Source: a virus. Taken from it: DNA of 64,000 bases. The number at the start of each line of letters is the position of its first letter. Position 1 is the first letter of the stretch. This document shows, piece after piece, positions 10,401-42,399 of the stretch. The position numbers and the translations under genes were made by a program. The notes beneath the pieces are model-generated. The model had not been told where the DNA came from. It saw only the letters and a program-made list of their open reading frames with translations, and did not search any database. The stretch is taken from the IMG/VR virus record IMGVR_UViG_3300006045_001056, positions 1,912-65,911 of that record; one strand, given 5' to 3'.

Positions 10401-13400
10401 AGATGCTGCTCCCTATTGTTTTTACTGTATTCGGCAATTGTACGATTGTCAACGATCTACAATTAGTGAACGCATTGTTGCCAATCGTTTCCAATCCGTC
10501 GTTAAACCCGATATATGACAAGTTCGTACAGCCAGAAAAAACATTGCTTCCCATTATTTCTAACGTACTCGGCAAGACGACGCTTGTCAGAGTTGTTTTG
10601 TTTTGGAATGCGTTGTTGTCGATTGATTGTACTATATATCCGTTGATTTCCTTCGGTATTATTATAACCGTGTCGCTCCCTGTGTACCCCGTAATCGCAC
10701 AATATGTCCCATTGATGATACGGGTTGTAAATGATGAAGTCAGCGTTACCGTTCCATCAACGACCAATTCTACCACAACATCGGGAAGAACATTTCCGTT
10801 GGAAGAAGCGACGCAATTTATTGTATCAATGTTGATTTTGTAAAGCGGGTGATGGAATCTAACTTGATAAGCGTAGCCAACCCGCGCATTTGTACATACC
10901 CATTCACCAGAAGAGTTTGTGTAATATGTTCCGAGTATTTTTCCACTTAATGTATCATACAATGACACAGAAGCTCCACTAACCCCATTATTATTGGTAT
11001 CTACAACTTTTCCTGATACTGTGACACCTTCATAAACCAATGATTCTGTGGAAAATGGAATGCTGTTTGTATTCGCGTATGTTTCAGCATATGTATCTGA
11101 AATACCATGTATCGTAAGCCTTGAGCAATTTAGGAACACATTGTTGCCGATAGTTGCGGCATTTCGGTCAATCCATACTTTCTCCAACCCCGTGCAATTG
11201 GCAAAGGCGTTGTTGCCGATACTGTCGAGCGTGCTGGGCAGAATCACCGTTTGGATGTTTGTACTTCCACTAAATGTGTACATTGGTATAGCTGTCACGC
11301 CCTCTGGCACGACAATATTTGTCAATTTCGTACAACCGTAGAACAATCGCGACGCATAACCGATTGAGCTGCTAACATATGTGTTGGCTACGCTCGTTAA
11401 GCTACGAGGGTAATTGATGCTCGTCAGGTTTGAACAGCCGTCGAACACGTAATATCCCATCGTCGTCACGCTGTCTGGCAACATCAGACTCACCAACCCC
11501 GTACAACCGCTGAATGCGTAGTTACCCATCGTCGTCAATATATTCGGCAGGCTTACTGTCGTCAGTCCCGTACACCCACTGAATGCGCTATCGCTTAGTG
11601 CCATTAGCGTATTCGGCAAACTCACCTTAGTCATGCCCGTACAGCCGCTGAACGCGCTGTTTCCCACCGATGTTAATCCCTCGTTCAAGGTCACTTCGCG
11701 CAGGCTCGTACAGCCGTTGAATGCACTATTACCTATCGTTTTCAAATTGTCCACGAAATTTATATTACCCAATCCCGTGCAATTGGCGAAGGCGTTGTTG
11801 CCTATACTTTCGAGAGTGTTTGGCAAAACCACCGTTTGCAGGCTTGTACTGCCACTGAATGCGTATGCTGGTATCGCCGTCACTCCCTCTGGTACGACGA
11901 TACTTGTCAATTTCGGACAGCCGTAGAATAACCGCGACACGTAGCCGATCGAACTACTCACGTATGTGTTAGTGACGCTCGTCAGACTGCGAGGATAATT
12001 AATGCTCGTCAGGTTTGAACAGCCGTCGAACACGTAATATCCCATCGTCGTCACGCTGTCAGGTAACGTCAGACTCACCAATTCCATGCAACCACTGAAT
12101 GCGTAATTGCCTATAGTTGTTATCATACTCGGCAGGCTTACTGTCGTCAATCTTATGCAGCCACTGAATGTATTGTCGCTTATTGTCATCAGCGTATTCG
12201 GCAAATTCATCATCGTCATTCCAGTACAGCCATTGAAAGCACTATTACCCAACGATGTAAGTCCCTCGTTCAAAGTCACTTCACGCAAACTGGTACAGCC
12301 GTTGAATGCACTGTTGCCTATCGTCCTCAGACTGTCCACGAAATTCACGTTACTCAGCCCCGTGCAATTGGCGAAGGCGTTGTTGCCGATACTGTCGAGC
12401 GTGCTGGGCAGAATCACCGCCTGAAGGTTTGCGCTACCACTGAACGTGTAAGCCGGTATCGCCGTCACTCCCTCTGGTACGATGATACTTGTCAATTTCG
12501 GACAGCCGTAGAATAACCGAGATACATAGCCGATTGAACTGCTCACATATGTATTGGCTACACTCGTCAGGTTACGAGGGTAATTGACATTCGTCAGGTT
12601 CGAGCAGCCATCGAACACATAATATCCCATTGTTGTCACGCTATCGGGTAGTGTCAGGCTTACCAGTTCTGTACACCCGCTGAATGCGTAACTATCTATT
12701 GTTGTAAGTGTATTCGGCAGGCTTACCGTTGTTAACCCTGTGCAGCCGCTAAATATATTGCTTCCTATTGTTTTTACTGTATTCGATAATTGTACCATCG
12801 TCAACGACCTACAATTAGTGAACGCATTGTTGCCAATCGTTTCAAGTCCGTCGTTGAATCCGATATATGACAAGTTTGTACAACCGGAAAATACATTGCT
12901 TCCTATTGTTTCTAATGTATTTGGTAAGACTACGCTTGTCAGGGTTGTTTTATTTTGGAATGCGTTGTTGTCGATTGTCTGCACTATATAACCGTTGATC
13001 GCGTTTGGTATCACAATCACTATGTCGCTCCCCGTGTAACCAGTTATAGCACAGTATGTCCCATTAATGATACGGGTTGTGAATGATGATGGCGATGTTA
13101 CCGCTCCTCCAGCGATTAGTTCTGCTAAAATATCCGGCAATATATTACCATCAGAAGAGGCGACGCAACTTATTGTATCAATGTTAATTTTGTAAAGCGG
13201 GTGATGGAATCTAACTTGATAAGCGTAGCCAACCCGCGCATTCAGGCAAGCCCAAGTACCAGTAGAATCGGTATAATATGTACCGAGTATCTTTCCATTC
13301 AATATATCGTAAAGAGATACTGATACGCCGCTGATTTCGTTGTTATTAGTGTCTATCACTTTCCCTGATATTGTGACACCCTCATATACTAACGGCTCTG

Positions 13401-15531
13401 TGGAAAACGGAATACTATTTATATTTGCATATGTTTCAACGTATGTATCTGAAATACCATGTATCGTAAGCTGTGAACAATTTAGGAACACATTGTTGCC
13501 GATAGTTGCGGCATTTCGGTCAATCCATACTTTTTCCAACCCCGTGCAGTTGGCAAAAGCGTTATTGCCGATGGTAACGAGGGTACTCGGTAGAATCACC
13601 GTTTGCAGATTTGTACTTCCACTGAACGTGTACGCTGGTATCGCCGTCACGTCTTCTGATACCGTGATACTCGTCAGCTTCGTACAGCCGTAAAACAGCC
13701 GCGACGCATAACCGACTGAGCTGCTCACGTATGTATTGGCTACATTCGTCAGGCTACGGGGATAGTTGATGCTCGTAAGGTTCGAGCAGCCGTCAAACAC
13801 GTAATATCCCATCGTCGTCACGCTGTCAGGTAACGTCAGGCTTACCACCCCCGTACAACCGCTAAACGCATAATTGCCTATTGTCAGCAGGACGTTTGGC
13901 AAACTCACTATCGTCAGTCCTGTGCATCCGCTGAATGTGTTGTCGCTTATCGTTGTCAGCGTATTTGGTAGGCTCACCTTAGTCATGCCAGTGCAGCCAT
14001 TGAATGCACCGTTACCGACCGATGCAAGCCCTTCGTTCAAAGTCACTTCACGCAGGCTCGTACAACCATTGAACACATTACTTCCTATCGTCCTCAGACT
14101 GTCCACGAAATTCACGTTACTCAACCCCGTGCAATTGGCGAAAGCGTTGTTGCCGATGGTAGAAATGGTACTGGAGAGAACCACCGTTTGCAAGTTTGTA
14201 CTACCACTGAATGTGTACGCCGGTATCGTTGTCACTTCTTCTGGCACGACTATGTTTGTTAGTTTCGTACAACCGTAGAACAATCGCGACACGTAGCCGA
14301 TCGAACTACTCACGTATGTGTTGGCGACGCTCGTTAGGCTACGAGGATAATTAATGCTCGTAAGGTTCGAGCAACCGTCGAACACGTAATATCCCATCGT
14401 CGTCACGCTGTCAGGTAACGTCAGGCTCACCAGACTCGTACAACCACTGAATGCGTAGTTGCCCACCGTAGTCAACATACTCGGCAGGCTCACTGTTGTC
14501 AACCCTGTGCAACCATTAAATGTGCTGTCGCTTACTGTCATCAGTGTACTCGGTAGGCTCACCTTAGTCATGCCAGTACAGCCATTGAACGCGCTGTTAC
14601 CGACCGATGTAAGCCCTTCGTTTAAGGTCACCTCACGCAAACTGGTACAGCCGTTGAATGCACTGTTGCCTATCGTCCTCAGACTGTCCACGAAATTCAC
14701 GTTACTCAGCCCCGTGCAATTAGCGAAAGCGTTGTTGCCGATGGAATTGAGGGTGCTGGGTAGAACTATTATTTGCAAGTTCGTACTACCGCTGAATGTG
14801 TACGCCGGTATCGCCGTCACATCTTCTGGCACGACGATGTTCGTCAGATTCGTGCAGCCGTAAAACAGCCGCGACACATATCCAATCGAACTACTTACAT
14901 ATGTATTGGCAACGCTCGCCAAGTTGCGAGGGTAATTAATACTCGTCAGGTTTGAGCAACTATCGAACACGTAATATCCCATCATTGTCACGCTGTCAGG
15001 CAATGTCAAACTCACCAATCCTGTACAACCACTGAATGCGTAACTCTCTATCGTTGTAAGTGTGGTTGAAAAAACCATATTTTCTAAATTCGTGCAACCG
15101 GAAAATGCATTGCTTCCTATCGTTTTTATTGTGTTCGACATTTGTACCGTTTCCAACGCCCTACAATCAGCGAACGCATTGCTGCCGATGCTCACCAATC
15201 CGTCGTTGAACCCTATGTATGACAGATTCGAACAACCAGAAAACACGTTGCTACCCATCGTTTCAAGCGTATTCGGCAAAACCACGCTTGTCAGAGTGGT
15301 TTTGCTTTGGAAAGCTCCATTGTCAATTGTCTGCACTATGTACCCATTGACTTCGCTTGGAATCACGATGGCTGTGTCGCTCCCAGTATAACCTGTCACT
15401 GCACAGTATGTTCCGTTTAATATACGGATTGTAAAATCGGAAGTATCTGCAGCCATTACTATTAATCCAACTGGTAAATAAGTAATTAACATCGCCAAAA
15501 TCAACAATAAACTTAACAATTTCTTTTTCAT
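1417..15531 (-). CDS. Giant (4704 aa) BspA/TpLRR (LRR_5) cell-surface protein with carboxypeptidase-regulatory-like, Cys/His-rich, Ig-like, InlB-B-like and C-terminal SLH domains
   Basis: Signal peptide MKKKLLSLLLILAM; many xLPxxLxxIGxxAFxGCxxL repeats; PDKxxYxVGExLDLxG Ig-like repeats; three C-terminal SLH motifs (YTDVKEDDWF, FSDVIAGEWYSDAIIWA, ATRAEIAMIM). Confidence 0.92.
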   Translation of the reverse strand: MKKKLLSLLLILAMLITYLPVGLIVMAADTSDFTIRILNGTYCAVTGYTGSDTAIVIPSEVNGYIVQTIDNGAFQSKTTLTSVVLPNTLETMGSNVFSGCSNLSYIGFNDGLVSIGSNAFADCRALETVQMSNTIKTIGSNAFSGCTNLENMVFSTTLTTIESYAFSGCTGLVSLTLPDSVTMMGYYVFDSCSNLTSINYPRNLASVANTYVSSSIGYVSRLFYGCTNLTNIVVPEDVTAIPAYTFSGSTNLQIIVLPSTLNSIGNNAFANCTGLSNVNFVDSLRTIGNSAFNGCTSLREVTLNEGLTSVGNSAFNGCTGMTKVSLPSTLMTVSDSTFNGCTGLTTVSLPSMLTTVGNYAFSGCTSLVSLTLPDSVTTMGYYVFDGCSNLTSINYPRSLTSVANTYVSSSIGYVSRLFYGCTKLTNIVVPEEVTTIPAYTFSGSTNLQTVVLSSTISTIGNNAFANCTGLSNVNFVDSLRTIGSNVFNGCTSLREVTLNEGLASVGNGAFNGCTGMTKVSLPNTLTTISDNTFSGCTGLTIVSLPNVLLTIGNYAFSGCTGVVSLTLPDSVTTMGYYVFDGCSNLTSINYPRSLTNVANTYVSSSVGYASRLFYGCTKLTSITVSEDVTAIPAYTFSGSTNLQTVILPSTLVTIGNNAFANCTGLEKVWIDRNAATIGNNVFLNCSQLTIHGISDTYVETYANINSIPFSTEPLVYEGVTISGKVIDTNNNEISGVSVSLYDILNGKILGTYYTDSTGTWACLNARVGYAYQVRFHHPLYKINIDTISCVASSDGNILPDILAELIAGGAVTSPSSFTTRIINGTYCAITGYTGSDIVIVIPNAINGYIVQTIDNNAFQNKTTLTSVVLPNTLETIGSNVFSGCTNLSYIGFNDGLETIGNNAFTNCRSLTMVQLSNTVKTIGSNIFSGCTGLTTVSLPNTLTTIDSYAFSGCTELVSLTLPDSVTTMGYYVFDGCSNLTNVNYPRNLTSVANTYVSSSIGYVSRLFYGCPKLTSIIVPEGVTAIPAYTFSGSANLQAVILPSTLDSIGNNAFANCTGLSNVNFVDSLRTIGNSAFNGCTSLREVTLNEGLTSLGNSAFNGCTGMTMMNLPNTLMTISDNTFSGCIRLTTVSLPSMITTIGNYAFSGCMELVSLTLPDSVTTMGYYVFDGCSNLTSINYPRSLTSVTNTYVSSSIGYVSRLFYGCPKLTSIVVPEGVTAIPAYAFSGSTSLQTVVLPNTLESIGNNAFANCTGLGNINFVDNLKTIGNSAFNGCTSLREVTLNEGLTSVGNSAFSGCTGMTKVSLPNTLMALSDSAFSGCTGLTTVSLPNILTTMGNYAFSGCTGLVSLMLPDSVTTMGYYVFDGCSNLTSINYPRSLTSVANTYVSSSIGYASRLFYGCTKLTNIVVPEGVTAIPMYTFSGSTNIQTVILPSTLDSIGNNAFANCTGLEKVWIDRNAATIGNNVFLNCSRLTIHGISDTYAETYANTNSIPFSTESLVYEGVTVSGKVVDTNNNGVSGASVSLYDTLSGKILGTYYTNSSGEWVCTNARVGYAYQVRFHHPLYKINIDTINCVASSNGNVLPDVVVELVVDGTVTLTSSFTTRIINGTYCAITGYTGSDTVIIIPKEINGYIVQSIDNNAFQNKTTLTSVVLPSTLEIMGSNVFSGCTNLSYIGFNDGLETIGNNAFTNCRSLTIVQLPNTVKTIGSSIFSGCTGLTTVSLPNTLTTIESYAFSGCTGLVSLTLPDSVTTMGYYVFDGCSNLTSINYPRSLTSVANTYVSSSIGYVSRLFYGCTKLTSITIPEGVTTTPAYTFSGSTNLQTIVLPSTLATIGNNAFNGCTSLRELFLNEGLTSVGNNVFNGCTEMTTVSLPSTLTTLNDSMFNGCISLREVIMNEGLTTIGNYAFSGCTGVVSLTLPDSVTTMGYYVFDGCSNLTSINYPRSLTSVANTYVSSSIGYVSRLFYGCTNLTSITVPEDVTAIPAYTFSGNTSLQTVVLPNTLESIGNNAFANCTGLSNINFVNSLRTIGNSTFNGCTSLSEVTLNEGLTIVGNSAFSGCTGMTTVSLPNTLTTINDSTFNGCIRLAAVNLPNALSTVNNYAFSGCTGLVSLTLPDSVTTMGYYVFDGCSNLTSINYPRSLTNVANTYVSSSIGYVSRLFYGCTKLTSITVPEGVTAIPAYTFSGSTNLQTVVLPSTLAIIGNNAFANCTGLMEINLVEGLKTISQSTFMGCSSLSVLEFPESMESIGNSAYSGCSGLRLIIFNEGLKTIGSNAFDGCAGLTSIVLNDGLTTLSSYSFASCINLTSILIPNSVTSIAANSFNNCPKLKIYCYSGSAAHYAAENNGYPYFLLDAHDHEFFTTIETSPTCTRGGSAINTCSICGYNYIEVLEPLGHTPGDWIIVKEATCIEDGLKKNYCIIDNVELESEIIPATGHTFGEWSTEKEATVLANGLKSRECEICGEKETENLPQIFIDISQTNEYGLANFTVVNATTLEPISGASIFISTPNDGECTLSTDSNGKISQVLPVGNLTISAYANGYLVRELKITIKPGIQEIPRIGLSEKPMVEGKLTVREMTYDEIIAAGIDPNAPGNQHVYRYQVEITFRAEIDVLSIIAFFNGTGDFLGGVGPDGGGGRGSDGVLWYNGGYSPGGTGGGGFGWRLSDGTDVTIFPVSERFYLIIYGEVRWLKEMFDAELLVINNSLTDTIEDCVAELTLPDGLSLADMVYGAQSAVQTIDYIEEGGSKSVHWYIRGDKEGTYSVTASLQGTMMPFDERFSYEYVAQDPIKVYAGSAMHMTFYIPDSAFEGEDYTIRIELENVSHKSLYGVSHTIYALQGQVTHYSDGTVVTEEHVISGTSASAKEFKPGDKIIIEMTTNIMFHSEMIQHELNKLIGMVDNIETLMTSLKMLNAAANALNSLGGWIDSLSSIVDSGGLSWELIEGIWGLRDILDYMEFGKGEETKFNIYDSIRFAIANIPIRFVVTNVAVTTLSGSTTEIPYTIKLIPVGARYFGVDNIGQYIYDLVIASFGEISGDVLGVPFAKDITGYQDAVKRIKVVEDNIARLNVKGTGESTSRAWIEPAATRDSRMSSFASTSSTDFILSTNNETATYIDGVLEFKGSGIIEITPLNSVGGILYIENSEGYIHTYIIDVVEPHVCHSDNWTVIVPPTENTVGYKAILCDVCGDLLKLEEMIPCGNHIFGEWVTEFQPTNNTVGIKTRTCENCGLFEYEIIDSITNLPTGEIVIGTNYWNTFWNTFWNTVTFGLIYKDTKSVSLTADSDSTDEITIQYYLSDSELTLDDLNEFTTEWINYKNSFNINPNSKIIIYVKITDEFGNVTYINSTGIVLYTDSEAVTTEINFVKGFGLDKIAEVLLNGNTIQKIMNGEVTLEDGTDYIVSDGTIKFNAEYLESLETGEYTLTVYYNPLGVDYVDADENDIPATTEITLKVLPEPIILDNIIIFSLPDKMEYIVGDNFDLAGIIITAVYSDGSEKEITDFNTSIDDGDILDTIGIKTITVSYTEDDIIKTVDFTITVNPSPIISEGINITTLPEKMEYIVGEPLELTGIVVIIAYSDGSSEEVADYTTDPVNGTILDIIGTQTIIVSYTENDVTETTSFTVVVNALPIVLESISVTTLPDKTVYTVDEELDLSGMIVTAVYSDENTKIITDFSTEPTNGTILDIVDIIVVTVSYIENEIMKTDSFTITVNAIPVILESISVTTPPIKTVYTVGEALDLTGMVVTASYSDSSYNEVTDFTSNPINGAVLNIIGTQTIIISYTEDNITETDNFNVVVNAEPDVTPPTGEISIETNYWNSFWNTVTFGLICKNTQTVTITASDKNGNPATIQYYLSDEELTLAQIQALDAEWMDYSSPFDINPKNKYIIYVKLSDSSDNVAYINSEGIVLYEDSVLITTKINYIKGSEDNISATINLNGNTIANIKNGEYSLIELTDYVVSENEIIFSASYLDTLVAGTYTLTVSYNPLGIAYPETPSDGSNAPAISSITLTVNTVPDIQKYEFNVSAGIGGNISGTPSGTYEENTEMNVTATANIGYHFKDWTVSGVAISDIIASSVSFNMPAGSVTMTANFELDSAIVTNVIVSPQDIEVQQGGTHQFGATVEGENNPEQTVIWSVSDNESDETTISDIGLLTVGLDETANTLIVTATSTIDTNKFGMATVIITSDIPTPFYGISLDVSAYTFIDNTAKTVTITNTGNQPTGELIITLNGEDSNAFIISKTSIDDIAIGEFDTFDMVPKTELTEGTYTVTVTLSGDNGISASFDVNFTVNPVIPTIFTLTINSSDGGTVSGMPSGSYAEGTPVSITATENNGYTFAGWTAIGITLSENTARSIEFTMPDNNVMLTANFTKINYIITANPATGTYTNTQSVTLSVNAANVGIYYTVNGTEPTINNILYTGAIAVNQSVTIKAVAVIDGEIVSDVATFVYTINTSSGSGDSYVPPYTPPTDGDTTGETGSGIDSDNTSDDDDSGDLEEISDKDTPLSNAKFGDEPSAEGYVNPYTDVKEDDWFAEAARIMNQLGIMIGSGNTNTFKPHDVTNRYMLATILYRLNGEPEVSEDAIIPFSDVIAGEWYSDAIIWAYETGLMNGFPDGTFKGSELLTREQIVTVFYRYAEIMGFDVSARADLSKYEDAGKISDWALEAMQWAVAVGLIVGRTETTTVPQGEATRAEIAMIMKRFLFEIFGDDEDNDV
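8500..15440 (-). repeat. Nested tandem repeats: three 2352-bp blocks, each with three ~585-bp LRR units
   Basis: Marker (g/a)taatatcccat (MGYYVFD) at 14971, 14386, 13801 | 12619, 12034, 11449 | 10267, 9751, 9166. Spacing is 585 bp (one 516-bp exception); block period is 2352 bp. Outer limits approximate. Confidence 0.9.
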
Positions 15532-29952: not shown

Positions 29953-31194
29953 ATGCAATCAACAGAGAGATTTGAAAAAGTTAATATAGACCGGCTCGTG
30001 CCGTATGTGCGGAATGCCCGGACTCACAGCAAAGAACAAATATTACAGCTTCGCTCATCATTACGGGAATTCGGATTTGTTAATCCGGTCATAGTGGATA
30101 AAGACTATAACATCATTGCGGGTCACGGTCGTATAATAGCGGCGAAAGCAGAGGGACTGACTGAAGTCCCGTGCGTATTCGTGGAGCATCTGACCGAGGC
30201 GCAGAAAAAAGCATATATCCTTGCGGACAATCGGCTCGCCATGAATGCCGGTTGGGACGACGAATTATTGACTCTTGAATTTACAGACCTAAAAGACCTC
30301 GGCTTTGATGTCGAACTGACCGGTTTTGATACAAAAGAAATAGAAAAGTTATTCGCTGCCGGAAACGGCGACGCGCAGGAAGACGAATTTGACGTCGACG
30401 CGGAACTCGATAAACCTATGTTTTCAAAACTTGGAGATATATGGACGCTCGGTCGGCATCGCGTTATATGCGGCGACAGCACAAAAGCTGATATATACGG
30501 TACACTTATGCAAGGTAAGCAGGCAAATCTTATCGTGACCGATCCGCCGTATGGCATAGATTACCAAGGCACGGCGGGAAAAATCAAAAATGACAAATTT
30601 AATACCGACGAAAAGTTTTATGATTTTTTATTCGCTGCGTTTAAAAATATGGAATCCGCTCTTGCCAGCGATGGCGCGGCTTATGTTTTTCATGCTGACA
30701 GCAAAGGGCTAACATTCCGAAAAGCATTTGACGATGCAGGTTTCAAGTTGTCCGGTGCGTGTATATGGGTTAAAAACACATTCACGCTCGGTCGGAGCGA
30801 TTATCAATGGTGTCACGAACCTTGCCTGTATGGTTGGAAAAAGTCGGGTAAACATATATGGTACGGCGACAGAAAGCAGTCCACCATTTGGAACTGCGAC
30901 AAACCGTCGCGTTCAGAGAAACATCCGACCATGAAACCCGTGCCGTTGTTGGCAATACCAATTACAAACTCCACGCAGACAAACGGCATCGTGCTTGAAC
31001 CGTTCGGCGGTTCGGGAAGTACCCTCATTTGTTGCGAGCAGCTTGGGCGTATATGTTATGTTATTGAGTTAGACGAAAAATTTGTGGATGTTATTGTGAA
31101 CAGATATATAGAAACCATCGGAAACGCTGACGGCGTCTTTTTGGAACGCGGCGGCGCAACTATTCCTTATTCGGAGGTGGCAGCCGATGGATAA
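29953..31194 (+). CDS. ParB-like N-terminal domain plus N4/N6 DNA methyltransferase
   Basis: ParB: RNARTHS...IIAGHGR...LADNRL; MTase: TDPPY, HPTMKP, EPFGGSGSTL. Confidence 0.92.
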   Translation: MQSTERFEKVNIDRLVPYVRNARTHSKEQILQLRSSLREFGFVNPVIVDKDYNIIAGHGRIIAAKAEGLTEVPCVFVEHLTEAQKKAYILADNRLAMNAGWDDELLTLEFTDLKDLGFDVELTGFDTKEIEKLFAAGNGDAQEDEFDVDAELDKPMFSKLGDIWTLGRHRVICGDSTKADIYGTLMQGKQANLIVTDPPYGIDYQGTAGKIKNDKFNTDEKFYDFLFAAFKNMESALASDGAAYVFHADSKGLTFRKAFDDAGFKLSGACIWVKNTFTLGRSDYQWCHEPCLYGWKKSGKHIWYGDRKQSTIWNCDKPSRSEKHPTMKPVPLLAIPITNSTQTNGIVLEPFGGSGSTLICCEQLGRICYVIELDEKFVDVIVNRYIETIGNADGVFLERGGATIPYSEVAADG

Positions 31195-33193
31195 AAAATT
31201 AACGCTTGGTTCGCTTTTCGACGGGAGCGGAGGTTTCCCACTCGGCGGGCTGCTCTGCGGTATAGAACCGCTTTGGGCTTCGGAAGTTGAACCGTTCCCG
31301 ATTCGTGTCACGACAAAACGGCTGTCGAACGTAAAACATTACGGCGATATAAATAAAATAGACGGCGCAACAGTCCCGCCCGTGGATATCATCACGGCGG
31401 GTTTTTGCTGTCAGGATTTATCGGTGGCGGGCAATCGCGCCGGACTCCATGGCGAAAGGTCGGGGCTGTTTTTTCAGGTGATACGCATCATAAAAGAAAT
31501 GCGGGTTGCTACAAATAACAAATACCCGACATTCGCCGTTTTGGAAAACGTGCCGGGTATGTATTCGAGTAATAATGGTTTGGATTTTTTGGAGGTACTC
31601 AATGAACTCATCAAAATCAAAAACGAAACCCTGTCAGTATATCTGCCTGAAAATGGCAAATGGTCAACGGCGGGCGAGGTCGTGGGAGACGGTTTCTCAG
31701 TCGGCTGGCGGACGCTTGACGCTCAATTTTGGGGAGTCGCCCAGAGACGCCGCCGTTGTTACATTGTCGTCGATTTTACAGGCGAACGCGCCGGGGAAAT
31801 ACTATTTGACGAGTCGCGCCTGCGAAGGAATCCTCCGCAGAGCGGCTTCGCGCGGCAAGCAACTGCCGGAGATTCTGCGGCTGGCGTTGGAAGCGCAGTC
31901 AATGTGCTGAACGATCAGGGCGGTTCATTCATGGATATATCCGAAGAGGTAACTGGTACGCTGCGGTCGCAGGAACACGGGCATCAGCCGATAGTGTTTG
32001 AACCCGGCATTACCGCCCGTCTCGGACGCAAAGGAAGCATAAATATTTCTTCCACGCTTCGCGCAGATATGGGCGATAATCAGACGGCGGTCGCTATCCC
32101 CATAAACACGCAAGTCGGACTCCGAAACCACAAGGACGGGGACGGCACAGGGCTTGGCGTTGGTGAAGATGGGGATTCAGCTTACACCATTCAAGCCGGG
32201 CATTCCCATGCCGTAGCGATAGAAAACCGTCCGCAGGATAGCCGCGTGAAAATAAATGAGGACGGCGTTGTTCAAACTCTCGACGCCCGAATGGGTATGG
32301 GCGGCGGGAACGTACCGCTCGTAATGAATGAACGGCAATACGCTCTGACGGTCGGCGAGGATGTTGCGAATACCCTCACCGGCACGGATTTCAAAGGAAC
32401 TCAATGCGTGTTCGAGCCGAAAACTCTAAAAATTAGGTGTGGTCAGGGAAAAGGTGGAAAGGGGGCGTTGGTGCAGGATAATATGTCTGCAACGCTGTCT
32501 ACAAGTAACGACCAGACCGTATTTGTTCCGAAAGTTTATGGTATATGTTCAAAAAACAGTAATTCCATGAAATCGGCGAATCCGCATAGCGGGATTTACG
32601 AAGCGGAAACGGCACGAACGCTCGATACAACAATACCCGACCCGAACAAGAACGCGGGCGGCATGGCAGTAGTATCGGTGCAGGGCTCTATGATAGGTCG
32701 AAAGCCGGAAAACGGTCCCCAAGGGAGCGGCATTGGCGATGATGTCAGTTTTACCTTAACCGAAGCTGACAGACACAGCATCGCTTATTCGATGACGTGC
32801 GGAAGTTACACGCAAGTCTGCGAAGAAAAATCTCCGACATTAATGAGCCGGGATTATAAGGATGCGCCTGTTGTCGTATCAAAAAACCAATATATTGTCC
32901 GTAGGCTCACTCCGATTGAATGCGCTCTTTTACAAGGATTCCCACCCGATTGGTGTTCGGGACTTGAAACATCCGAACCGACCGATGAGGATATATCGTT
33001 CTGGTCGGAGATTTGGGAAACGCATCGTAATATAACAGGTACTTCAAATAAACCGAAAAGCCGCAATCAGATAATCAAGTGGCTGAAAAACCCACACAGC
33101 GATTCTGCTGAATACAAAATGTGGGGTAACGGAGTCGCGCTGCCCTGCGTGATTTTTGTCCTTGACGGGATTGTGAAACAAGCGGAATTATAG
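31187..33193 (+). CDS. DNA cytosine-5 methyltransferase with an expanded multi-module variable region
   Basis: SLFDGSGG, GFCCQDLS (motif IV variant), ENVPG, QRRRR, RRLTPIEC, MWGNGV. Confidence 0.92.
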   Translation: MDKKLTLGSLFDGSGGFPLGGLLCGIEPLWASEVEPFPIRVTTKRLSNVKHYGDINKIDGATVPPVDIITAGFCCQDLSVAGNRAGLHGERSGLFFQVIRIIKEMRVATNNKYPTFAVLENVPGMYSSNNGLDFLEVLNELIKIKNETLSVYLPENGKWSTAGEVVGDGFSVGWRTLDAQFWGVAQRRRRCYIVVDFTGERAGEILFDESRLRRNPPQSGFARQATAGDSAAGVGSAVNVLNDQGGSFMDISEEVTGTLRSQEHGHQPIVFEPGITARLGRKGSINISSTLRADMGDNQTAVAIPINTQVGLRNHKDGDGTGLGVGEDGDSAYTIQAGHSHAVAIENRPQDSRVKINEDGVVQTLDARMGMGGGNVPLVMNERQYALTVGEDVANTLTGTDFKGTQCVFEPKTLKIRCGQGKGGKGALVQDNMSATLSTSNDQTVFVPKVYGICSKNSNSMKSANPHSGIYEAETARTLDTTIPDPNKNAGGMAVVSVQGSMIGRKPENGPQGSGIGDDVSFTLTEADRHSIAYSMTCGSYTQVCEEKSPTLMSRDYKDAPVVVSKNQYIVRRLTPIECALLQGFPPDWCSGLETSEPTDEDISFWSEIWETHRNITGTSNKPKSRNQIIKWLKNPHSDSAEYKMWGNGVALPCVIFVLDGIVKQAEL

Positions 33194-34161: not shown

Positions 34162-34455
34162 TTTTTATATATCTGTAAATCAAGTATCATTTATATAATA
34201 CATTCAATATATGCATAAATATAACATAAAAAATATTTTCAGTCAAGATATTTCAAATAATTCAACGAATTAGCCGACTATAAATTATTAATGTTGCCAT
34301 TGTCTAATATATACGGCTCTATACTGTTATTTTCCTTGATATTTGGTACATTTATTATGCGTAAATGCCTTGCTATTATTATGTTTTTATGGCAATATGT
34401 GATTAGCAGAAGGCACAAAGCCTACGCAAAATCAAACAAAAACGGAGGGAAAAAC

Positions 34456-35431: not shown

Positions 35432-36334
35432 ATGTTCAACAGTAGATTTGGCATAGAAGTAGAGTTCACAGGGATAACGAGGACACAGGCGGCGAGGGTT
35501 GTTGCCGATTACCTTAACGGAACGGTCAGCGCGACACACGATTATTACGATACGCAAAAGGTCGCCGCTCCGGACGGCAGGGTTTGGAAAATCATGTCCG
35601 ACGCAAGCGTCAAATCCCAAAGGAAAGACCACGGCAGGACAATCGACGCAGGCAGCGAATACAAGGTTGAACTGGTCAGCCCGATACTTACCTACCGCGA
35701 TGACATAGACACCCTGCAGGAACTTATCCGCAGGCTGCGGAAAGCGGGCGGTTTCGCCAACAGCAGTTCGGGGATTCACATACACCTCGACGGCGCGAAC
35801 CACACTCCGAAAAGCATCAAAAACTTCATAAACATCATCGCAAGCAAAAACGACCTTTTTTACAAGGCACTCCAAATTGAGCCGGACAGAATGCGGTTTT
35901 GCAAAAAGATGGACAGTTATTTGGTAGAGCGAATGAACCAACGCAGACCGCAAACCCTGTCGCAGATAGAAAACATTTGGTACGAGGGATACAACGGAAG
36001 CCGCAATCAGCATTACCACGACAGCCGATACCATTTTCTGAACCTGCACAGCTTTTTCGGCGGCAACCATACGGTCGAACTTCGAGGCTTCAACAGCGAA
36101 CTCCACGCAGGAAAGATACGGTCGTACATAGTCCTCGCATTGGCGCTCAACCAACAAGCGTTGACACAAAAGAGTGCGTCAGCGCGAAAACCGCAGACCG
36201 ACAATGAAAAATTCGCCATGAGGACGTACCTGAACCGAGTCGGATTCATCGGAGAGGAGTTCAAAAACTGCCGCGAACACCTCTGCAAGCACCTTTCAGG
36301 GTCGGCGGCATGGCGTTACCGGACAACCGTTTAA
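35432..36334 (+). CDS. Amidoligase_2-family (COOH-NH2 ligase) protein
   Basis: FGIEVEF, VELVSP, GIHIH, SRYHFLNL, TVELRGFN. Confidence 0.9.
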   Translation: MFNSRFGIEVEFTGITRTQAARVVADYLNGTVSATHDYYDTQKVAAPDGRVWKIMSDASVKSQRKDHGRTIDAGSEYKVELVSPILTYRDDIDTLQELIRRLRKAGGFANSSSGIHIHLDGANHTPKSIKNFINIIASKNDLFYKALQIEPDRMRFCKKMDSYLVERMNQRRPQTLSQIENIWYEGYNGSRNQHYHDSRYHFLNLHSFFGGNHTVELRGFNSELHAGKIRSYIVLALALNQQALTQKSASARKPQTDNEKFAMRTYLNRVGFIGEEFKNCREHLCKHLSGSAAWRYRTTV

Positions 36335-36372
36335 CGGTAATACAATTATATAACATAAGGAGAAGAAAAATC

Positions 36373-36813
36373 ATGAACGGCGAAAACAAAATTTATGTGG
36401 CATACGGCAGCAACCTCAATTTAGAGCAAATGAAATTCCGCTGCCCATACGCAACGGTAATCGGCGGCGGTACGCTGCCGGATTATCAGCTTTTATTCAG
36501 AGGAGGCGACGGCGGTTCTGTGGCAACCGTAGAGCCGAAAAAAGACGGCAGCGTACCCGTGCTGCTTTGGGAGATAACCCCGCGAGACGAACAATCGCTT
36601 GACCGCTACGAGGGTTATCCGCATCTTTACCGCAAAGAAACGGTCGAGGTTCAATACGGCGAAAAATTAGTCGAAGCTATGGTGTATATCATGAACGGGA
36701 ACAGACCGCTTGGTACGCCAAGCGAATATTATTTGAACGCCATTTTGGAAGGATACGAGTCTGCGGATTTCGACAAGGAAGTATTGGAACAGGCTGTACG
36801 GAATTCAAAATAA
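36373..36813 (+). CDS. Gamma-glutamylcyclotransferase (AIG2-like)
   Basis: YVAYGSNLN...LDRYEGYP...PSEYY. Confidence 0.92.
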   Translation: MNGENKIYVAYGSNLNLEQMKFRCPYATVIGGGTLPDYQLLFRGGDGGSVATVEPKKDGSVPVLLWEITPRDEQSLDRYEGYPHLYRKETVEVQYGEKLVEAMVYIMNGNRPLGTPSEYYLNAILEGYESADFDKEVLEQAVRNSK

Positions 36814-36995: not shown

Positions 36996-37403
36996 ATGAA
37001 AAGAACAGAGGAAATCAAAAACCAATTAGCGTACATCGAAACCCGCAAAGTCCGCGCCCTTAAACATTACGAGGAGACAATCGCTAAAATAGACCAAGAG
37101 GCGGCAGACCTTCAAGCCGAACTCGAAAACATCAAAATCGCCGAAAAAATCGCCCGCAATACCCCCAAAACGATAGGCGCGTTTACACAGACAAACGAAA
37201 AAATCACAATTACTTTCGGCGGCTGGGACGGTCGGAGCTACAATGGCGAAGGCGTTAACTTGAGGATATGGACAAACAAACATTACCCGGATAAAAGATT
37301 TGTAAAATCCAGTCACTACGGCGGAGTATTCCATGAAGTATTAGACGATAAACACGAAAAAAGCGGTTTAACCGAAGTGACATATTTTGCGGACTGCAAA
37401 TAA
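36996..37403 (+). CDS. Hypothetical protein with its own promoter copy
   Basis: GGAGG RBS; N-terminal coiled coil; no recognised domain. Confidence 0.75.
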   Translation: MKRTEEIKNQLAYIETRKVRALKHYEETIAKIDQEAADLQAELENIKIAEKIARNTPKTIGAFTQTNEKITITFGGWDGRSYNGEGVNLRIWTNKHYPDKRFVKSSHYGGVFHEVLDDKHEKSGLTEVTYFADCK

Positions 37404-37515
37404 TAACCGAATATTACATCGAAAATACCGAGAACTGCCCGAAAGGGTTGTATCTCGTAGATATAGATTTCATAAGACTTTTTATAGGTCTTTTTTTATT
37501 TTATGGGAGTTTCCA

Positions 37516-39126
37516 ATGAGCAGTTATATTTATACTCCGACAAAATTAATGCTGCCGACAAGCCGTTACGATGCGCGGCGAGCCGACTTTGCGGTAAATT
37601 TCATTCAGATGCTCAGACACACCACGGGTGAATGGTATGGGAAACCGTTCCGGCTCATGCCTTGGCAAGAGCAGATTGTGCGCGATATTTTCGGCATAGT
37701 CGGCGGGGACGGTTACCGTCAGTTCCGCACGGCTTATGTAGAAGTCGGCAAAAAAAACGGCAAGTCCGAACTGGCTGCCGCCATCGCCCTATATCTTTTG
37801 TTCGCGGACGGCGAAGCGGGAGCGGAGGTGTACTCCTGCGCCGCCGACATCAATCAGGCGAGCATCGTTTTCAATACCGCCAAGGCAATGGTTGAGCAAT
37901 GCGGGGATTTGGCAAGGCTGTCAAAACTCGTGCCATCTACCAAGCGGATCATATTCCCGCATACAAATAGTTTTTATAGAGTTTTATCTTCCGAAACAAA
38001 ATCAAAACAAGGATTCAATGTGTCGGGACTCATATTTGATGAATTATTCGCGCAGCAAACCCGCGAGTTGTTTGACACCATGACGAAATACACGGGCGAT
38101 GCCAGACGGCAGCCGCTATATTTTTTAATCACAACAGCCGGTCGTGATAGAACGTCCATTTGTTATGAAATACACCAAAAGGCAAAAGCGGTACTGGACG
38201 GCTCGAAAGTTGACTCCTCGTTCTACCCCGCCGTGTTCGGCATCGAAGAAGGCGACGACTGGAACGACGAATCCGTATGGCGGCGGGTGAACCCGTCCAT
38301 CGACGTGACGATACCTTTTGAAACCGTGCAAGCCGCCTATGAACAGGCGAAACAAAATCCTGCCGAAGAGATGCACTTCCGTCAGTTTCGTTTAAACGAA
38401 TGGTGTAATGCTGATGTCCGGTGGATACCTATGGAGAAATGGGACGCTTGCGGCGAGGATTTCGACCCCGATGATTTCAAAGGGCGCGACTGTTACGCCG
38501 GACTGGATTTATCTTCGACGGGCGACCTTACGGCTCTGATGTTAGTGTTCCCCCCGAACGGCGATGATGATAAATACACCGTCCTGCCGTTTTTTTGGCT
38601 GCCAGAAAATGCTGTCGACCTGCGTACACGGCGCGACCATGTGCCGTATGCCGTTTGGCGCAAGACTGGCGTAATCAACACAACCGAGGGCGATGTGGTT
38701 GATTACGATTATATCGTTTCTTTTATAGAGGAACTCGTTGCGGATTTCCGAATCCGCGAAATTGCCTACGACCGCTGGGGCGCGGAGAAGATACGCCGCG
38801 ACCTTGAGGAACTTGGAGCGGAGCGTGGATTTACCGTATTCCCGTTCGGTCAGGGGTTTGCGAGCATGGCTGCCCCGACCCGCGACCTCATGCAGCTTGT
38901 TCAGGAAGGCAAGCTGCGTCACGGCAAACACCCTGTCCTCGACTGGAATATGGGTAACGTAGTCGCCGAGACCGACGCTCATCTTAATGTGAAAATGTCA
39001 AAGAAAAAATCCACGGAGAAAATCGACGGCGCGGTCGCTTTCGTCATGGGACTTGCCCGCGCGATGATGCAGAGCGGCAGTACGACGGTGTCTGTTTATG
39101 ACGAGAGAGGGTTGCTATTTGTATAA
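37516..39126 (+). CDS. terL: Terminase large subunit
   Basis: VGKKNGKS Walker A, LIFDE Walker B, GLDLS, KIDGAVA; start reassigned to ATG 37516. Confidence 0.95.
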   Translation: MSSYIYTPTKLMLPTSRYDARRADFAVNFIQMLRHTTGEWYGKPFRLMPWQEQIVRDIFGIVGGDGYRQFRTAYVEVGKKNGKSELAAAIALYLLFADGEAGAEVYSCAADINQASIVFNTAKAMVEQCGDLARLSKLVPSTKRIIFPHTNSFYRVLSSETKSKQGFNVSGLIFDELFAQQTRELFDTMTKYTGDARRQPLYFLITTAGRDRTSICYEIHQKAKAVLDGSKVDSSFYPAVFGIEEGDDWNDESVWRRVNPSIDVTIPFETVQAAYEQAKQNPAEEMHFRQFRLNEWCNADVRWIPMEKWDACGEDFDPDDFKGRDCYAGLDLSSTGDLTALMLVFPPNGDDDKYTVLPFFWLPENAVDLRTRRDHVPYAVWRKTGVINTTEGDVVDYDYIVSFIEELVADFRIREIAYDRWGAEKIRRDLEELGAERGFTVFPFGQGFASMAAPTRDLMQLVQEGKLRHGKHPVLDWNMGNVVAETDAHLNVKMSKKKSTEKIDGAVAFVMGLARAMMQSGSTTVSVYDERGLLFV

Positions 39127-39194
39127 ATGTTCATAATTTTATGCTATGATTATTACAGCCTAATTAACGATATAAATATATTGGAGGGAAAGAA

Positions 39195-40373
39195 ATGTTA
39201 TATCTTTTCAATTCAGGTTATTGGCAAAACCATATCAATAATTTGTTGAATACTCTTCATTTTCCCAAGGGAGTAATCAATGTTTATCAATACAAAACGG
39301 ATGATCCGAGTTATTCCATATCACAAAATGCAATTAACGCTCGTGTCGGAACAAAAGTGCTTATTAATTATATAGATCGACTCAGTTCTCCTGAATTTTG
39401 TTATTACCCAATGCGTTACGGGAAATTAGTTAAATGTGAGAAAAACAATACAAATATATATTTCCATATCGAACTATGCGATTATTGTAATGCACAGGAT
39501 ATAAACGATTTTAATAATAATTTTTCTTCATCCTTTGATAATACTCTTTTCAAAAATAAAGATAACTCTGTAATAATGCCTGTTGAAAACCAACAAACAG
39601 AAGGTTGTTTAGCATTTTGCGAAAATACTTATGATTTGAAGATAATGAATTTATTATCTTCAGACCATAACTCATGGAAAGAAACAGTAGAGCAGTTGTC
39701 TAACTGTGAATTGTTCAAAAATAATTTCCCCATTTTTACAAAAGTAAAGATACTAAATGCCAAGGATAAGGAAGTTTCGATTAAAAGAAAAAACTTGAAA
39801 AACAATTTTATTTTAAGAGTTGGTAATACCTATAATTTTAAAACTACTTATTATTTACCATATATTAATCAAAATATTAAATTTAAAGCTTACATCAATA
39901 CTGCGAGTAATCCCGATGTCTTTCTTAAGAAAGAAGATTCAAAATTATTTGGTGCAGCAACAGGTGACGAAAACTTTTCTTGTAACATTAGCAAAGAAGT
40001 TAAAAATTGTATTGTAGATATTAAATATGAAGCCAAGATCGGCGACGCAAAAGATGATAAAAATACGCAACTTCTAATTGCAAACAAACCAATTCCGATT
40101 ATTACGAAATCAAAATGTTCAAAATGGTGGAAAGTAATATTATTTGCAGTATTATTTGCAATATCTTCATTTATTTTAAGTGTGCAGGTTGATAATATAA
40201 TTGAAGAAGTAAAAATTTTAAATACTGCTGGCGATCCAGTACCAATGCAATTAAATATATTTTATCAAATAGCACGTATACTTGATTCTTTTAAATATAT
40301 TTATCAAGTTATTTTTAGTATAGTGTCGTCATTATCTTTGTTCTTTTTGGTAAAAATATATGGAAAAGATTAA
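39195..40373 (+). CDS. Unknown 392-aa protein with two C-terminal TM helices (AT-rich moron)
   Basis: GGAGG RBS; hydrophobic WWKVILFAVLFAISSFILSV and YIYQVIFSIVSSLSLFFLV. Confidence 0.8.
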   Translation: MLYLFNSGYWQNHINNLLNTLHFPKGVINVYQYKTDDPSYSISQNAINARVGTKVLINYIDRLSSPEFCYYPMRYGKLVKCEKNNTNIYFHIELCDYCNAQDINDFNNNFSSSFDNTLFKNKDNSVIMPVENQQTEGCLAFCENTYDLKIMNLLSSDHNSWKETVEQLSNCELFKNNFPIFTKVKILNAKDKEVSIKRKNLKNNFILRVGNTYNFKTTYYLPYINQNIKFKAYINTASNPDVFLKKEDSKLFGAATGDENFSCNISKEVKNCIVDIKYEAKIGDAKDDKNTQLLIANKPIPIITKSKCSKWWKVILFAVLFAISSFILSVQVDNIIEEVKILNTAGDPVPMQLNIFYQIARILDSFKYIYQVIFSIVSSLSLFFLVKIYGKD

Positions 40374-41064
40374 CGATGGAATTGTGTCCATTAATAAAAC
40401 GGAAGCTGAAGTTTTCTATAAAAAGTATGAGCATTTAGGGAATTGTGGATTAGGTGTTTGGCATTATGGATATTATGTGGATGGTGTATTACTATCTGTT
40501 GTATCTTTCGGAACAGCAAATTTCAATCCCAAGCGTTCTTTCATTGGGAAAATAGCCGCCGCTCATAATGTGAAAATAATACAACTTACGCGCGGGGGAA
40601 CTTTATACGATGCTCCAAGCAATACTCCAAGCAAAGTAATAGCACTCGTGTTAAAGGCTATAATGAAGCGATTTGGAAATACAATTATTATTGCTTATTC
40701 AGACACGAAATTTTATGAAGTCGGAACAATATATCAAGCATCAAATTTCTTATATCTTGGATGCACCAATCCTAAAAATCAATCGAATTATATAGTGAAT
40801 GGAAAACAATACACGGGGTGGACAATAAGAAAAAAATACGGAACAAGAAATATGTCTACCCTTGTTAATGAATTGGAATTAAATATAAAAAAAATAACTT
40901 TGTCAGAAAAACATCAATATGTATATATTAATACTTCACCGCTTATTAAAAAAAGTATAAAAAATTGTCTTAATTATAAAATTAAAGCATATCCCAAAAG
41001 GGATGTGTTACAAATAGGTAGTATGTTAGATTACCACAAAAGTATTGGGCTGCGTAAAAATTGA
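40360..41064 (+). CDS. Mom-like GNAT-fold DNA modification protein
   Basis: LTRGG...APSNTPSK...IIAYSD...GTIYQASNFLYLG resembles the Mu Mom family signature; overlaps the upstream gene by 14 nt. Confidence 0.7.
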   Translation: MEKINDGIVSINKTEAEVFYKKYEHLGNCGLGVWHYGYYVDGVLLSVVSFGTANFNPKRSFIGKIAAAHNVKIIQLTRGGTLYDAPSNTPSKVIALVLKAIMKRFGNTIIIAYSDTKFYEVGTIYQASNFLYLGCTNPKNQSNYIVNGKQYTGWTIRKKYGTRNMSTLVNELELNIKKITLSEKHQYVYINTSPLIKKSIKNCLNYKIKAYPKRDVLQIGSMLDYHKSIGLRKN

Positions 41065-41102
41065 ATATTATAAAAGCACTTTTTCAAAATTAAAATATTA
41101 TT

Positions 41103-41131
41103 AAAAGCATCGTTTTCGACGGTGCTTTTTT
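41103..41131 (+). terminator. Terminator ending the terL-portal moron
   Basis: AAAAGCATCGT-tttcg-ACGGTGCTTTTTT. Confidence 0.8.
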
Positions 41132-41160
41132 CATATCCATTTTACGGAGGAAACGCAACT

Positions 41161-42399
41161 ATGAGCATATTTTCAGGGCTTTTCCGTTCCCGCGACAAAC
41201 CCAAAAACAAAGTCGGCGGCGGATTTTCATTCTTCTTCGGCGGCACATCGTCCGGAAAGGCGGTCAACGAGCGCACAGCCATGCAGACCACGGCGGTGTA
41301 CGCCTGTGTCCGAATACTCGCTGAATCCATCGCGGGACTGCCACTTCACATATATAAATACAAGAGCGACGGCGGCAACGAAAAAGCTGTCAGTCACCCG
41401 CTATATCATACGCTCCATGACGAGCCGAATCCGGAGATGACTTCGTTTGTGTTCAGGGAAACACTGATGAGCCATCTTCTTTTGTGGGGTAACGCATATG
41501 CACAAATCATCCGCGACGGGCGAGGTAAAGTATTATCGCTTTTTCCCCTGCTGCCGAATATGGTGGAAGTTGACCGCTCCGCGAACGGGGAGATATTTTA
41601 TACATACAAGCGCGGAGCAGACGAAAACGAAAAAGTCACATTGCGCCGCGACGAAGTGCTACACATACCCGGACTCGGTTTCGACGGACTTGTCGGCTAT
41701 TCACCGATAGCCATGGCAAAAAACGCCGTCGGTATGGCTATTGCCACCGAGGAGTACGGCGCGTCATTTTTCGCCAACGGCGCGAATCCGGGCGGCGTAC
41801 TGGAACATCCAAATGTAGTCAAAGACATACAGCGCGTTAAAGATTCGTGGAATACCGCATACCAAGGCAGTAAAAACGCTCACCGCGTCGCAATCCTTGA
41901 AGAGGGCATGAAATTCCATCAAATCGGTATTCCACCCGAACAGGCGCAGTTCTTGGAAACGCGGAAGTTTCAAATCAATGAAATCGCCCGTATCTTTCGA
42001 GTTCCACCGCACATGGTCGGCGACCTCGAAAAATCGAGTTTCAGCAACATAGAACAGCAGTCGCTGGAATTTGTTAAATATACGCTCGACCCGTGGGTAG
42101 TGCGGTGGGAACAGGCTCTACAGCAATCACTTATGCTACCCTCGGAAAAAGGCGCGTATTTTGTGCGGTTCAACCTTGACGGACTGCTGCGCGGCGATTA
42201 CGCCAGCCGAATGACTGGTTATTCCACCGCCCGTCAGAACGGCTGGATGAGCGCGAACGACATAAGGGAGTTAGAGAACATGAACCGTATTCCGGCAGAG
42301 GAAGGCGGCGACTTATATCTCGTAAACGGCAATATGCTGCCGCTTAAGGACGCGGGGGCTTTTGCGAATAAAAATCAGAAGGAGGAAGATACAATATGA
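41161..42399 (+). CDS. HK97-family portal protein
   Basis: AVYACVRILAE, LLWGNAY, GLVGYSPI, FRVPPHMVGDL, SNIEQQSL. Confidence 0.96.
   Translation: MSIFSGLFRSRDKPKNKVGGGFSFFFGGTSSGKAVNERTAMQTTAVYACVRILAESIAGLPLHIYKYKSDGGNEKAVSHPLYHTLHDEPNPEMTSFVFRETLMSHLLLWGNAYAQIIRDGRGKVLSLFPLLPNMVEVDRSANGEIFYTYKRGADENEKVTLRRDEVLHIPGLGFDGLVGYSPIAMAKNAVGMAIATEEYGASFFANGANPGGVLEHPNVVKDIQRVKDSWNTAYQGSKNAHRVAILEEGMKFHQIGIPPEQAQFLETRKFQINEIARIFRVPPHMVGDLEKSSFSNIEQQSLEFVKYTLDPWVVRWEQALQQSLMLPSEKGAYFVRFNLDGLLRGDYASRMTGYSTARQNGWMSANDIRELENMNRIPAEEGGDLYLVNGNMLPLKDAGAFANKNQKEEDTI

Follow-up and report, generated by a model that had tools for sequence, protein, structure and literature searches.

In a 64,000-nt window of viral DNA (positions 1,912 to 65,911 of IMG/VR record IMGVR_UViG_3300006045_001056), which originates from a termite-gut metagenome assembly and carries a prophage, we found a compact two-gene cassette of 1,870 nt that couples a membrane-anchored protein of an unnamed family (gene 1, open reading frame at 39195-40373, 392 amino acids (aa)) to a GNAT-fold enzyme of the Mom family (gene 2, 40360-41064, 234 aa). 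Coordinates refer to the whole window, and both cassette genes lie on the + strand. The pair is firmly established as a conserved two-gene module, and its pairing is close to obligate in genomes and metagenomes. As to function, we tentatively favor a horizontally mobile conflict module, most likely an anti-phage one of the abortive-infection or exclusion type, that the prophage carries as a moron.

Gene 1 and its Mom partner are nearly always found together

In species-representative genomes, a gene 1 relative directly adjoined the subfamily Mom gene on the same strand at all 14 loci, the hosts being Eubacteriales, Acutalibacteraceae, Christensenellaceae, Bacteroidota, Acidobacteriota, Pirellulales, a deltaproteobacterium, Nitrosovibrio and Legionellales. 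On metagenome contigs, each of the evaluable subfamily Moms was likewise paired (27/27) and none with adequate flanks stood alone; 10 further loci lay too close to a contig edge and were not counted. Six additional look-ups centered on gene 1 relatives found a Mom gene adjacent in all cases. The first-pass annotation of this DNA, made from the sequence alone, had proposed such a cassette and had named rare co-occurrence of the genes elsewhere as evidence against it; what was found is co-occurrence at every genomic and every evaluable metagenomic locus. Both gene orders exist, gene 1 preceding Mom in 27 cases and following it in 10. The pairwise divergences of the two genes were correlated (Mantel r 0.49, 0/2000 permutations), which indicates co-inheritance of the two genes, not physical contact. 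The lone clear exception is a solo subfamily Mom, 58% identical to gene 2 (L001:6001-6693, and L002), which is divergent from a fragmented type I restriction R-like gene set and lies near DUF3800 and serine recombinase genes.

In contrast, the Moms of viral collections are mostly solitary. The best 80 Mom relatives in IMG/VR shared no more than 37% identity with gene 2, and 56 of the 57 evaluable ones lacked gene 1; a subfamily profile scored these solo Moms at 118 bits or less, versus 270-365 bits for most paired copies. Among 50,697 phage genomes, Mom was matched 210 times and gene 1 never, and the plasmid collection likewise gave no match to gene 1. By these comparisons, the paired Moms form a distinct subfamily of mainly cellular or mobile-element residence.

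The pair was seen in Bacillota, Bacteroidota, Acidobacteriota, Planctomycetota and Pseudomonadota, that is, in at least five phyla, and no further copy turned up in random samples of 400 other genomes of its own phylum (0/400) and 400 of the phylum of the Nitrosovibrio hit (0/400). Because it is AT-rich and rare in the sampled phyla yet spread over five of them, the cassette is most likely horizontally mobile. The 118 neighbors of the pair included no third gene that is conserved; they comprise recombinases, transposases, a few defense genes and many ordinary genes.

Gene 2 very probably encodes an active Mom-type enzyme

The first-pass annotation had called gene 2 Mom-like, and the profile searches agreed: it matched the Pfam Mom family (PF25680) with 81.6 bits (cut-off 27.1; E 8e-23) over profile positions 7-202 of 202, and phrog_1384 with E 3.6e-27. 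The structure and mechanism of the phage Mu enzyme have been solved: Gly-tRNA(Gly) donates glycine to the N6 atom of adenine in double-stranded DNA, giving an N6-glycyl amide intermediate that then rearranges on the base (PMC13219725). A gene 2 profile built from 62 subfamily relatives aligned with the Mu Mom structure 8bv8 at E 1.2e-6. With Mu residues given in native numbering (8bv8 chain number + 9, an offset obtained from the S124A mutation in the crystallized protein), R111, S124, D149 and Y159 of Mu Mom correspond to R78, S91, D115 and Y125 of gene 2. R78, D115 and Y125 are invariant in the 62 members, and position 91 is S in 59 and T in 3, so that four of the five key residues of Mu Mom are kept. 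The fifth, R151, falls opposite K117, at a position that varies among the members (K 24, R 6, E 6, others) and where the alignment is uncertain. The helix-turn-helix (HTH)-like insertion specific to Mom (~175-209 in Mu) is also present, at ~140-175 of gene 2, and W154, R157, K158 and R163 within it are invariant. Therefore, as both these four residues and the HTH-like insertion are conserved, gene 2 very probably encodes an active Mom-type enzyme.

Gene 1 combines a PUA-like domain, an Ig-like domain and a membrane hairpin

A word-based homolog search with gene 1 returned only gene 1 itself; the idea that it is an orphan was rejected, the word search being insensitive, when an exhaustive HMMER search retrieved a family of 201 representative clusters at E ≤ 1e-3. 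The relatives are mostly 350-400 aa long and 20-30% identical, and none of them has a Pfam family. No Pfam, PHROG or PADLOC match to gene 1 was obtained. Gene 1 belongs to a fast-evolving family that lacks a Pfam model.

AlphaFold2 gave an unusable model from the single sequence (predicted local distance difference test (pLDDT) 43) and a confident one from an alignment of 126 family members (pLDDT 91.9, predicted template modeling score 0.88). In this model, residues 1-170 (39195-39704), the best-conserved part of the protein, would form a PUA-like beta-barrel of the EVE/YTH/ASCH type; residues 174-308 (39714-40118) an immunoglobulin (Ig)-like beta-sandwich resembling macroglobulin MG and Wzt-CBD domains; and residues 309-392 (40119-40370) a helical hairpin. 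By hydropathy the hydrophobic helices of the hairpin span 314-332 and 372-390, and the model helices run from 309 to 345 and from 351 to 389, so the earlier description of gene 1 as a soluble part with a C-terminal tail of two transmembrane helices holds on both counts. A C-terminal hydrophobic helix occurs in 125 of the 126 full-length family representatives. Because the K-rich stretch TKSKCSKWWK precedes the first transmembrane helix, the hairpin is predicted to have an N-in/C-in topology, with the N-terminal domains in the cytoplasm.

The PUA-like fold of the N-domain was reached by three routes. In an Atlas shape search with the N-domain alone, EVE, HNH_2, McrB-type and Lon-N clusters were retrieved at template modeling scores of 0.51-0.57, and Foldseek of gene 1 against the PDB, Swiss-Prot and AFDB clusters returned mainly matches to the Ig-like domain and members of its own family. 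At the sequence level, none of the 126 family members matched the Pfam EVE, ASCH or YTH models at E ≤ 0.1, and in an hhalign comparison with small EVE and ASCH alignments the N-domain scored a probability of ~1%, but the EVE-versus-ASCH positive control likewise failed, so this comparison had no power. The conserved residues of the family, F5, Y13, P24, Y33, D61, P72, R74, G137, W161 and F181, lie mostly in the N-domain, where they make an aromatic-rich set plus D61 and R74; the window gene 1 has H in place of the conserved Y13. Conservation of F5, Y13, Y33, D61, R74 and W161 indirectly suggests that the N-domain may bind a modified base.

A 508-aa form of gene 1 (P0207, L023:279-1805) has four extra N-terminal hydrophobic helices before the PUA-like domain and is followed by a Mom gene. 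In the uncharacterized 748-aa protein A0A7X6P253 of an AFDB cluster, similarity to the soluble part of gene 1 spans residues 9-292 (E 4e-14), and the other ~450 residues may form a different C-terminal module.

Distant relatives of gene 1 accompany RADAR-type deaminases

Two distant full-length members of the gene 1 family, P0212 and P0258, are partnered with RADAR-type adenosine deaminases instead of a Mom; their membership was confirmed with a hidden Markov model from which they had been left out (E 4e-69 and 2e-77). The gene for P0212 and the end of an adenosine deaminase gene that matches PADLOC RdrB overlap by 4 nt, and P0258 is encoded alongside RdrA-like and RdrB-like genes in what looks like an operon. 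RADAR turns (d)ATP into (d)ITP on infection, and some of its loci add a membrane protein, RdrD (PMC9994260, PMC11482910). Neither the window gene 1 nor its RADAR-linked relatives match any PADLOC model, those for Rdr proteins included, and RdrA and RdrB were not found in the window. Judged from these gene neighborhoods, the gene 1 family accompanies two unrelated enzymes acting on position 6 of adenine, one of which belongs to a validated defense system. RADAR-like loci with a gene 1 family member in the place of the known accessory were seen at L024:3-2023 and L239:5864-15176 and also at L240 and L241; L239 additionally codes for a 339-aa coiled-coil protein, a 40-aa open reading frame and a TPR protein.

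Layout of the cassette

Gene 1 is preceded by a Shine-Dalgarno sequence, GGAGGG (39183-39188, + strand), read directly from the sequence 6 nt before its ATG. Its stop overlaps the start of gene 2 by 14 nt (40360-40373, + strand), which makes translational coupling of the two genes likely. An identical 14-nt overlap occurs at locus L242, and 3-nt gaps or small overlaps are found elsewhere; the alternative GTG start of gene 2 at 40384 would leave a 10-nt gap and no overlap, and the family alignment prefers the ATG. A hairpin resembling an intrinsic terminator (41103-41129, with its U run 41103-41131, + strand) stands just before the portal gene; it folds at -13.2 kcal/mol (z = -5.6), none of 200 shuffles folds equally well, and a simple terminator scan of the + strand did not pick it up.

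The cassette has a GC content of 0.26-0.35 (39200-41000), against 0.45-0.55 on either side, and is flanked upstream by TerL (37387-39126; TerL_ATPase and TerL_nuclease matches) and downstream by the portal gene (41122-42399; Phage_portal, E 1.7e-132). In these respects, the first-pass annotation was accurate: the open reading frame coordinates and translation agree with two genes overlapping by 14 nt and with the motif IIAYSD...GTIYQASNFLYLG in gene 2, the GC profile and the Pfam-identified flanks with an AT-rich cassette between terL and portal, and the folding of the hairpin and U run, far better than that of shuffles, with a terminator of its own.

A variable cargo slot in the prophage

In 76 related viral contigs, whose portal proteins are 70-81% identical, TerL and portal abut in ~45, and ~31 junctions (within L143-L222) hold low-GC inserts of 0.3-3.8 kb that encode Fic/DOC, HATPase_c_3, AAA_14-DUF4143, DDE transposase, DUF1413 or unknown proteins. 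Because the inserts at this junction are so varied in ~31 of the 76 siblings, the slot that the cassette occupies is a moron hotspot, a variable position of the prophage. One such insert consists of three genes (L189:2230-5937).

Elsewhere in the window, genes for an Amidoligase_2 protein and a GGACT/AIG2-like (gamma-glutamyl cyclotransferase) protein lie at 35432-36813, just upstream of the packaging genes. A promoter motif, TTGCTA-N17-YAATAT, is repeated in the prophage at 34370, 35340 and 36909, each region following one copy; these are its only copies, and the spacer before gene 1 has none. Beyond the late region of the prophage, a single open reading frame of 4704 aa occupies 1417-15531 on the - strand. 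Only two sequencing runs, both of termite-gut metagenomes and possibly the source of the window, contain the locus in full.

A tentative role in anti-phage defense

Four observations led us to favor defense: the sensor-plus-two-transmembrane-helix architecture of gene 1, the link of its family to RADAR, the contrast between the paired Moms and the solo Moms of phages, and the moron setting. As a possible mechanism, gene 2 would respond to a sensed infection by altering position 6 of adenine, either in DNA or, possibly, in a nucleotide; gene 1 would bind the altered adenine, or the nucleic acid bearing it, through its PUA-like domain and would then signal to its membrane hairpin, which may oligomerize or permeabilize the membrane in the way proposed for the two-transmembrane effectors of Pycsar and CBASS or the RdrD of RADAR. 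The wiring might also be reversed, gene 1 serving as the infection sensor that controls the gene 2 enzyme. A broader proposal, which we consider doubtful, is that members of the gene 1 family act in general as membrane effectors or sensors reading adenines with an altered position 6, and that two otherwise unrelated kinds of enzyme, the tRNA-dependent transferases of Mom type and the deaminases of RADAR type, share them; on this view the Mom pair would constitute a new form of abortive infection, with a nucleobase modification that depends on aminoacyl-tRNA as the immune signal or weapon.

Several results weigh against a defense function. Only few of the 118 neighbors of the pair are defense genes, most being ordinary or mobile-element genes, and neither gene 1 nor gene 2 matched any PADLOC model at E ≤ 1. 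The RADAR association is based on two gene families only, and the conserved N-domain residues are identical in Mom-linked and RADAR-linked members, which makes a pocket specialized for a single product less likely. As for expression, no sigma-70-like promoter was detected on the + strand in the 68-nt spacer after terL (39127-39194), and no RNA run was among the sequencing runs carrying the locus. The only role demonstrated for a Mom enzyme, moreover, is anti-restriction, and two genomic settings of the pair fit the self-protection of DNA: the closest gene 1 relative (31% identical) stands beside a C5 methylase in a conjugative element, and the prophage itself encodes two DNA methyltransferases. 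The defense role proposed in the first-pass annotation gains indirect support from the RADAR-like loci; the enrichment of defense genes around the pair is weak.

Competing explanations

A serious rival, to which we nevertheless assign a rather low probability, is that the pair is an anti-restriction module, in which the Mom-like enzyme, like that of Mu, protects its own element from host restriction by hypermodifying the DNA, and gene 1, taking a Com-like place, regulates, localizes or limits its toxic activity. Besides being the sole role shown by experiment for the Mom family (PMC13219725), this would suit the conservation of the catalytic and DNA-binding residues of gene 2. It would also suit the prophage, where a ParB_N-N6/N4 methylase (413 aa) and a C5 methylase (668 aa) are adjacent at 29953-33193, and the conjugative element of the closest gene 1 relative, where the pair (L237/L238:6098-10099, gene order Mom>gene 1) sits between genes for a giant MutS_I/Eco57I/SNF2 helicase-type protein of 2160-2503 aa and a C5 DNA methylase, after which come Bro-N, a relaxase and a type IV secretion system coupling protein; another copy of the pair lies within a mobilizable element. 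However, phage Moms are solo (56/57 evaluable) and Mu Mom works in vitro without a partner, so that an obligate membrane partner of 380 aa is left unexplained under anti-restriction. The paired subfamily is, further, almost absent from viral collections, several pairs stand between housekeeping genes with no mobile-element signature, and relatives of gene 1 occur in RADAR-like defense loci. In the prophage C5 methylase, the Pfam match spans the N-terminal 144 residues only.

The remaining three explanations are less likely than either defense or anti-restriction. The first-pass annotation had itself favored a logic like that of restriction-modification, in which the Mom-like enzyme marks self DNA and the membrane protein attacks unmarked cells or DNA. 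Strict linkage of two genes suits such a poison-and-antidote arrangement, and in jumbo phages Mom domains are fused to restriction-endonuclease domains, read as modification plus restriction (PMC7824862). Nevertheless, PUA-like readers of the EVE, YTH and SRA type recognize modified bases, which is the opposite polarity; no nuclease domain was detected in gene 1; and another partner of the gene 1 family, a nucleotide deaminase, leaves no mark on DNA. We consequently regard self-marking as improbable. Of that annotation as a whole, the Mom-family gene 2, the two-transmembrane gene 1 and the conserved cassette stood, while expression in the lysogen and the self-marking logic gained no support.

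More improbable still is a toxin-antitoxin arrangement like DarTG, in which the Mom-like toxin would aminoacylate DNA adenine or drain charged tRNA, gene 1 would act as its antidote by sequestering it or by erasing the N6-acyl intermediate with its PUA-like domain, and infection would free the toxin. Uncontrolled expression of Mom is toxic to Escherichia coli, hence the tight regulation of mom, and ASCH proteins are N4-acylcytosine amidohydrolases; the former speaks for this arrangement, as do the overlapping and co-inherited genes and the N6-glycyl amide step of Mom chemistry. GNAT toxins and modules of GNAT-EVE plus ASCH are an established, computationally predicted theme (PMC7641849). On the other side, a membrane protein of 380 aa would be an unusual antitoxin, neither an ASCH catalytic motif nor a Pfam ASCH match was found in gene 1, and the gene order is not fixed.

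A target other than nucleic acid is very improbable: gene 1 would recruit the Mom-like aminoacyl-tRNA transferase to the membrane, its PUA-like domain holding the tRNA as classical PUA domains bind tRNA acceptor stems, and a lipid or envelope precursor would be aminoacylated as by MprF or FemX. This would agree with the membrane anchor of gene 1 and with the lipid and peptidoglycan-precursor substrates of further tRNA-dependent transferases that share the fold (PMC13219725), but gene 2 retains the HTH-like insertion, to which DNA binding has been ascribed, together with its invariant basic residues; a distribution this patchy, rare and mobile is unlike that of envelope housekeeping; and the RADAR link points to adenine chemistry.

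Significance and comparison with known systems

For decades Mom was the curiosity of a single phage, and its chemistry, a DNA modification with a charged tRNA as donor, was solved only in 2026. The locus described here reveals a Mom subfamily of its own, mostly non-viral, whose members are locked to a membrane protein that has the fold of modified-base readers. Should the anti-phage reading hold, the pair would represent a new enzymatic principle in bacterial immunity and would offer a way to approach the membrane accessories of RADAR, which are as yet unexplained; should it be an anti-restriction device, Mom activity could be controlled from the membrane. Either way, the gene pair can be tested directly in laboratory strains. 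No published description of a Mom paired with gene 1 was found in the papers searched, Pfam, PHROGs or PADLOC, in agreement with the first-pass annotation, to which no system with this pairing was known.

Compared with Mu Mom (PF25680; 8bv8), gene 2 preserves the HTH-like insertion and has counterparts of R111, S124, D149 and Y159. It differs in being only distantly related (profile E 1.2e-6; at most 33% identity to any phage Mom), in belonging to a separate subfamily that is nearly always paired with gene 1 and almost missing from viral collections, in having no com-like gene with it, and in the variable equivalent of R151 (K117). RADAR resembles the cassette in joining an adenine-modifying enzyme to an auxiliary membrane protein, and two gene 1 relatives sit beside RdrB-like genes; in the window, however, the partner is a tRNA-dependent transferase and no deaminase.

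In Pycsar PycTM and the transmembrane effectors of CBASS, a short C-terminal transmembrane module follows a ligand-binding domain in the cytoplasm, and an enzyme is encoded alongside. Gene 1 is predicted to have the same architecture and has the same kind of neighbor, but no cyclase is present here and its sensor fold is PUA-like, not cNMP-binding or SAVED. The N-domain of gene 1 is of the same fold class as the PUA-like readers of type IV restriction enzymes (VcaM4I, 6yex; McrB-type N-domains; HNH_2 proteins), whereas its predicted effector is a membrane hairpin in place of a nuclease or GTPase and the reader brings its own writer. The nearest described idea is the (PIN)-GNAT-EVE plus ASCH module, a computationally predicted conflict module (Bell, Wolf and Koonin 2020, PMC7641849). 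There, too, a GNAT-fold writer is coupled to PUA-like readers in mobile, prophage-borne predicted conflict modules; in the window, by contrast, the GNAT belongs to the Mom family, and the reader is a separate, membrane-anchored protein that matches no EVE or ASCH sequence model.

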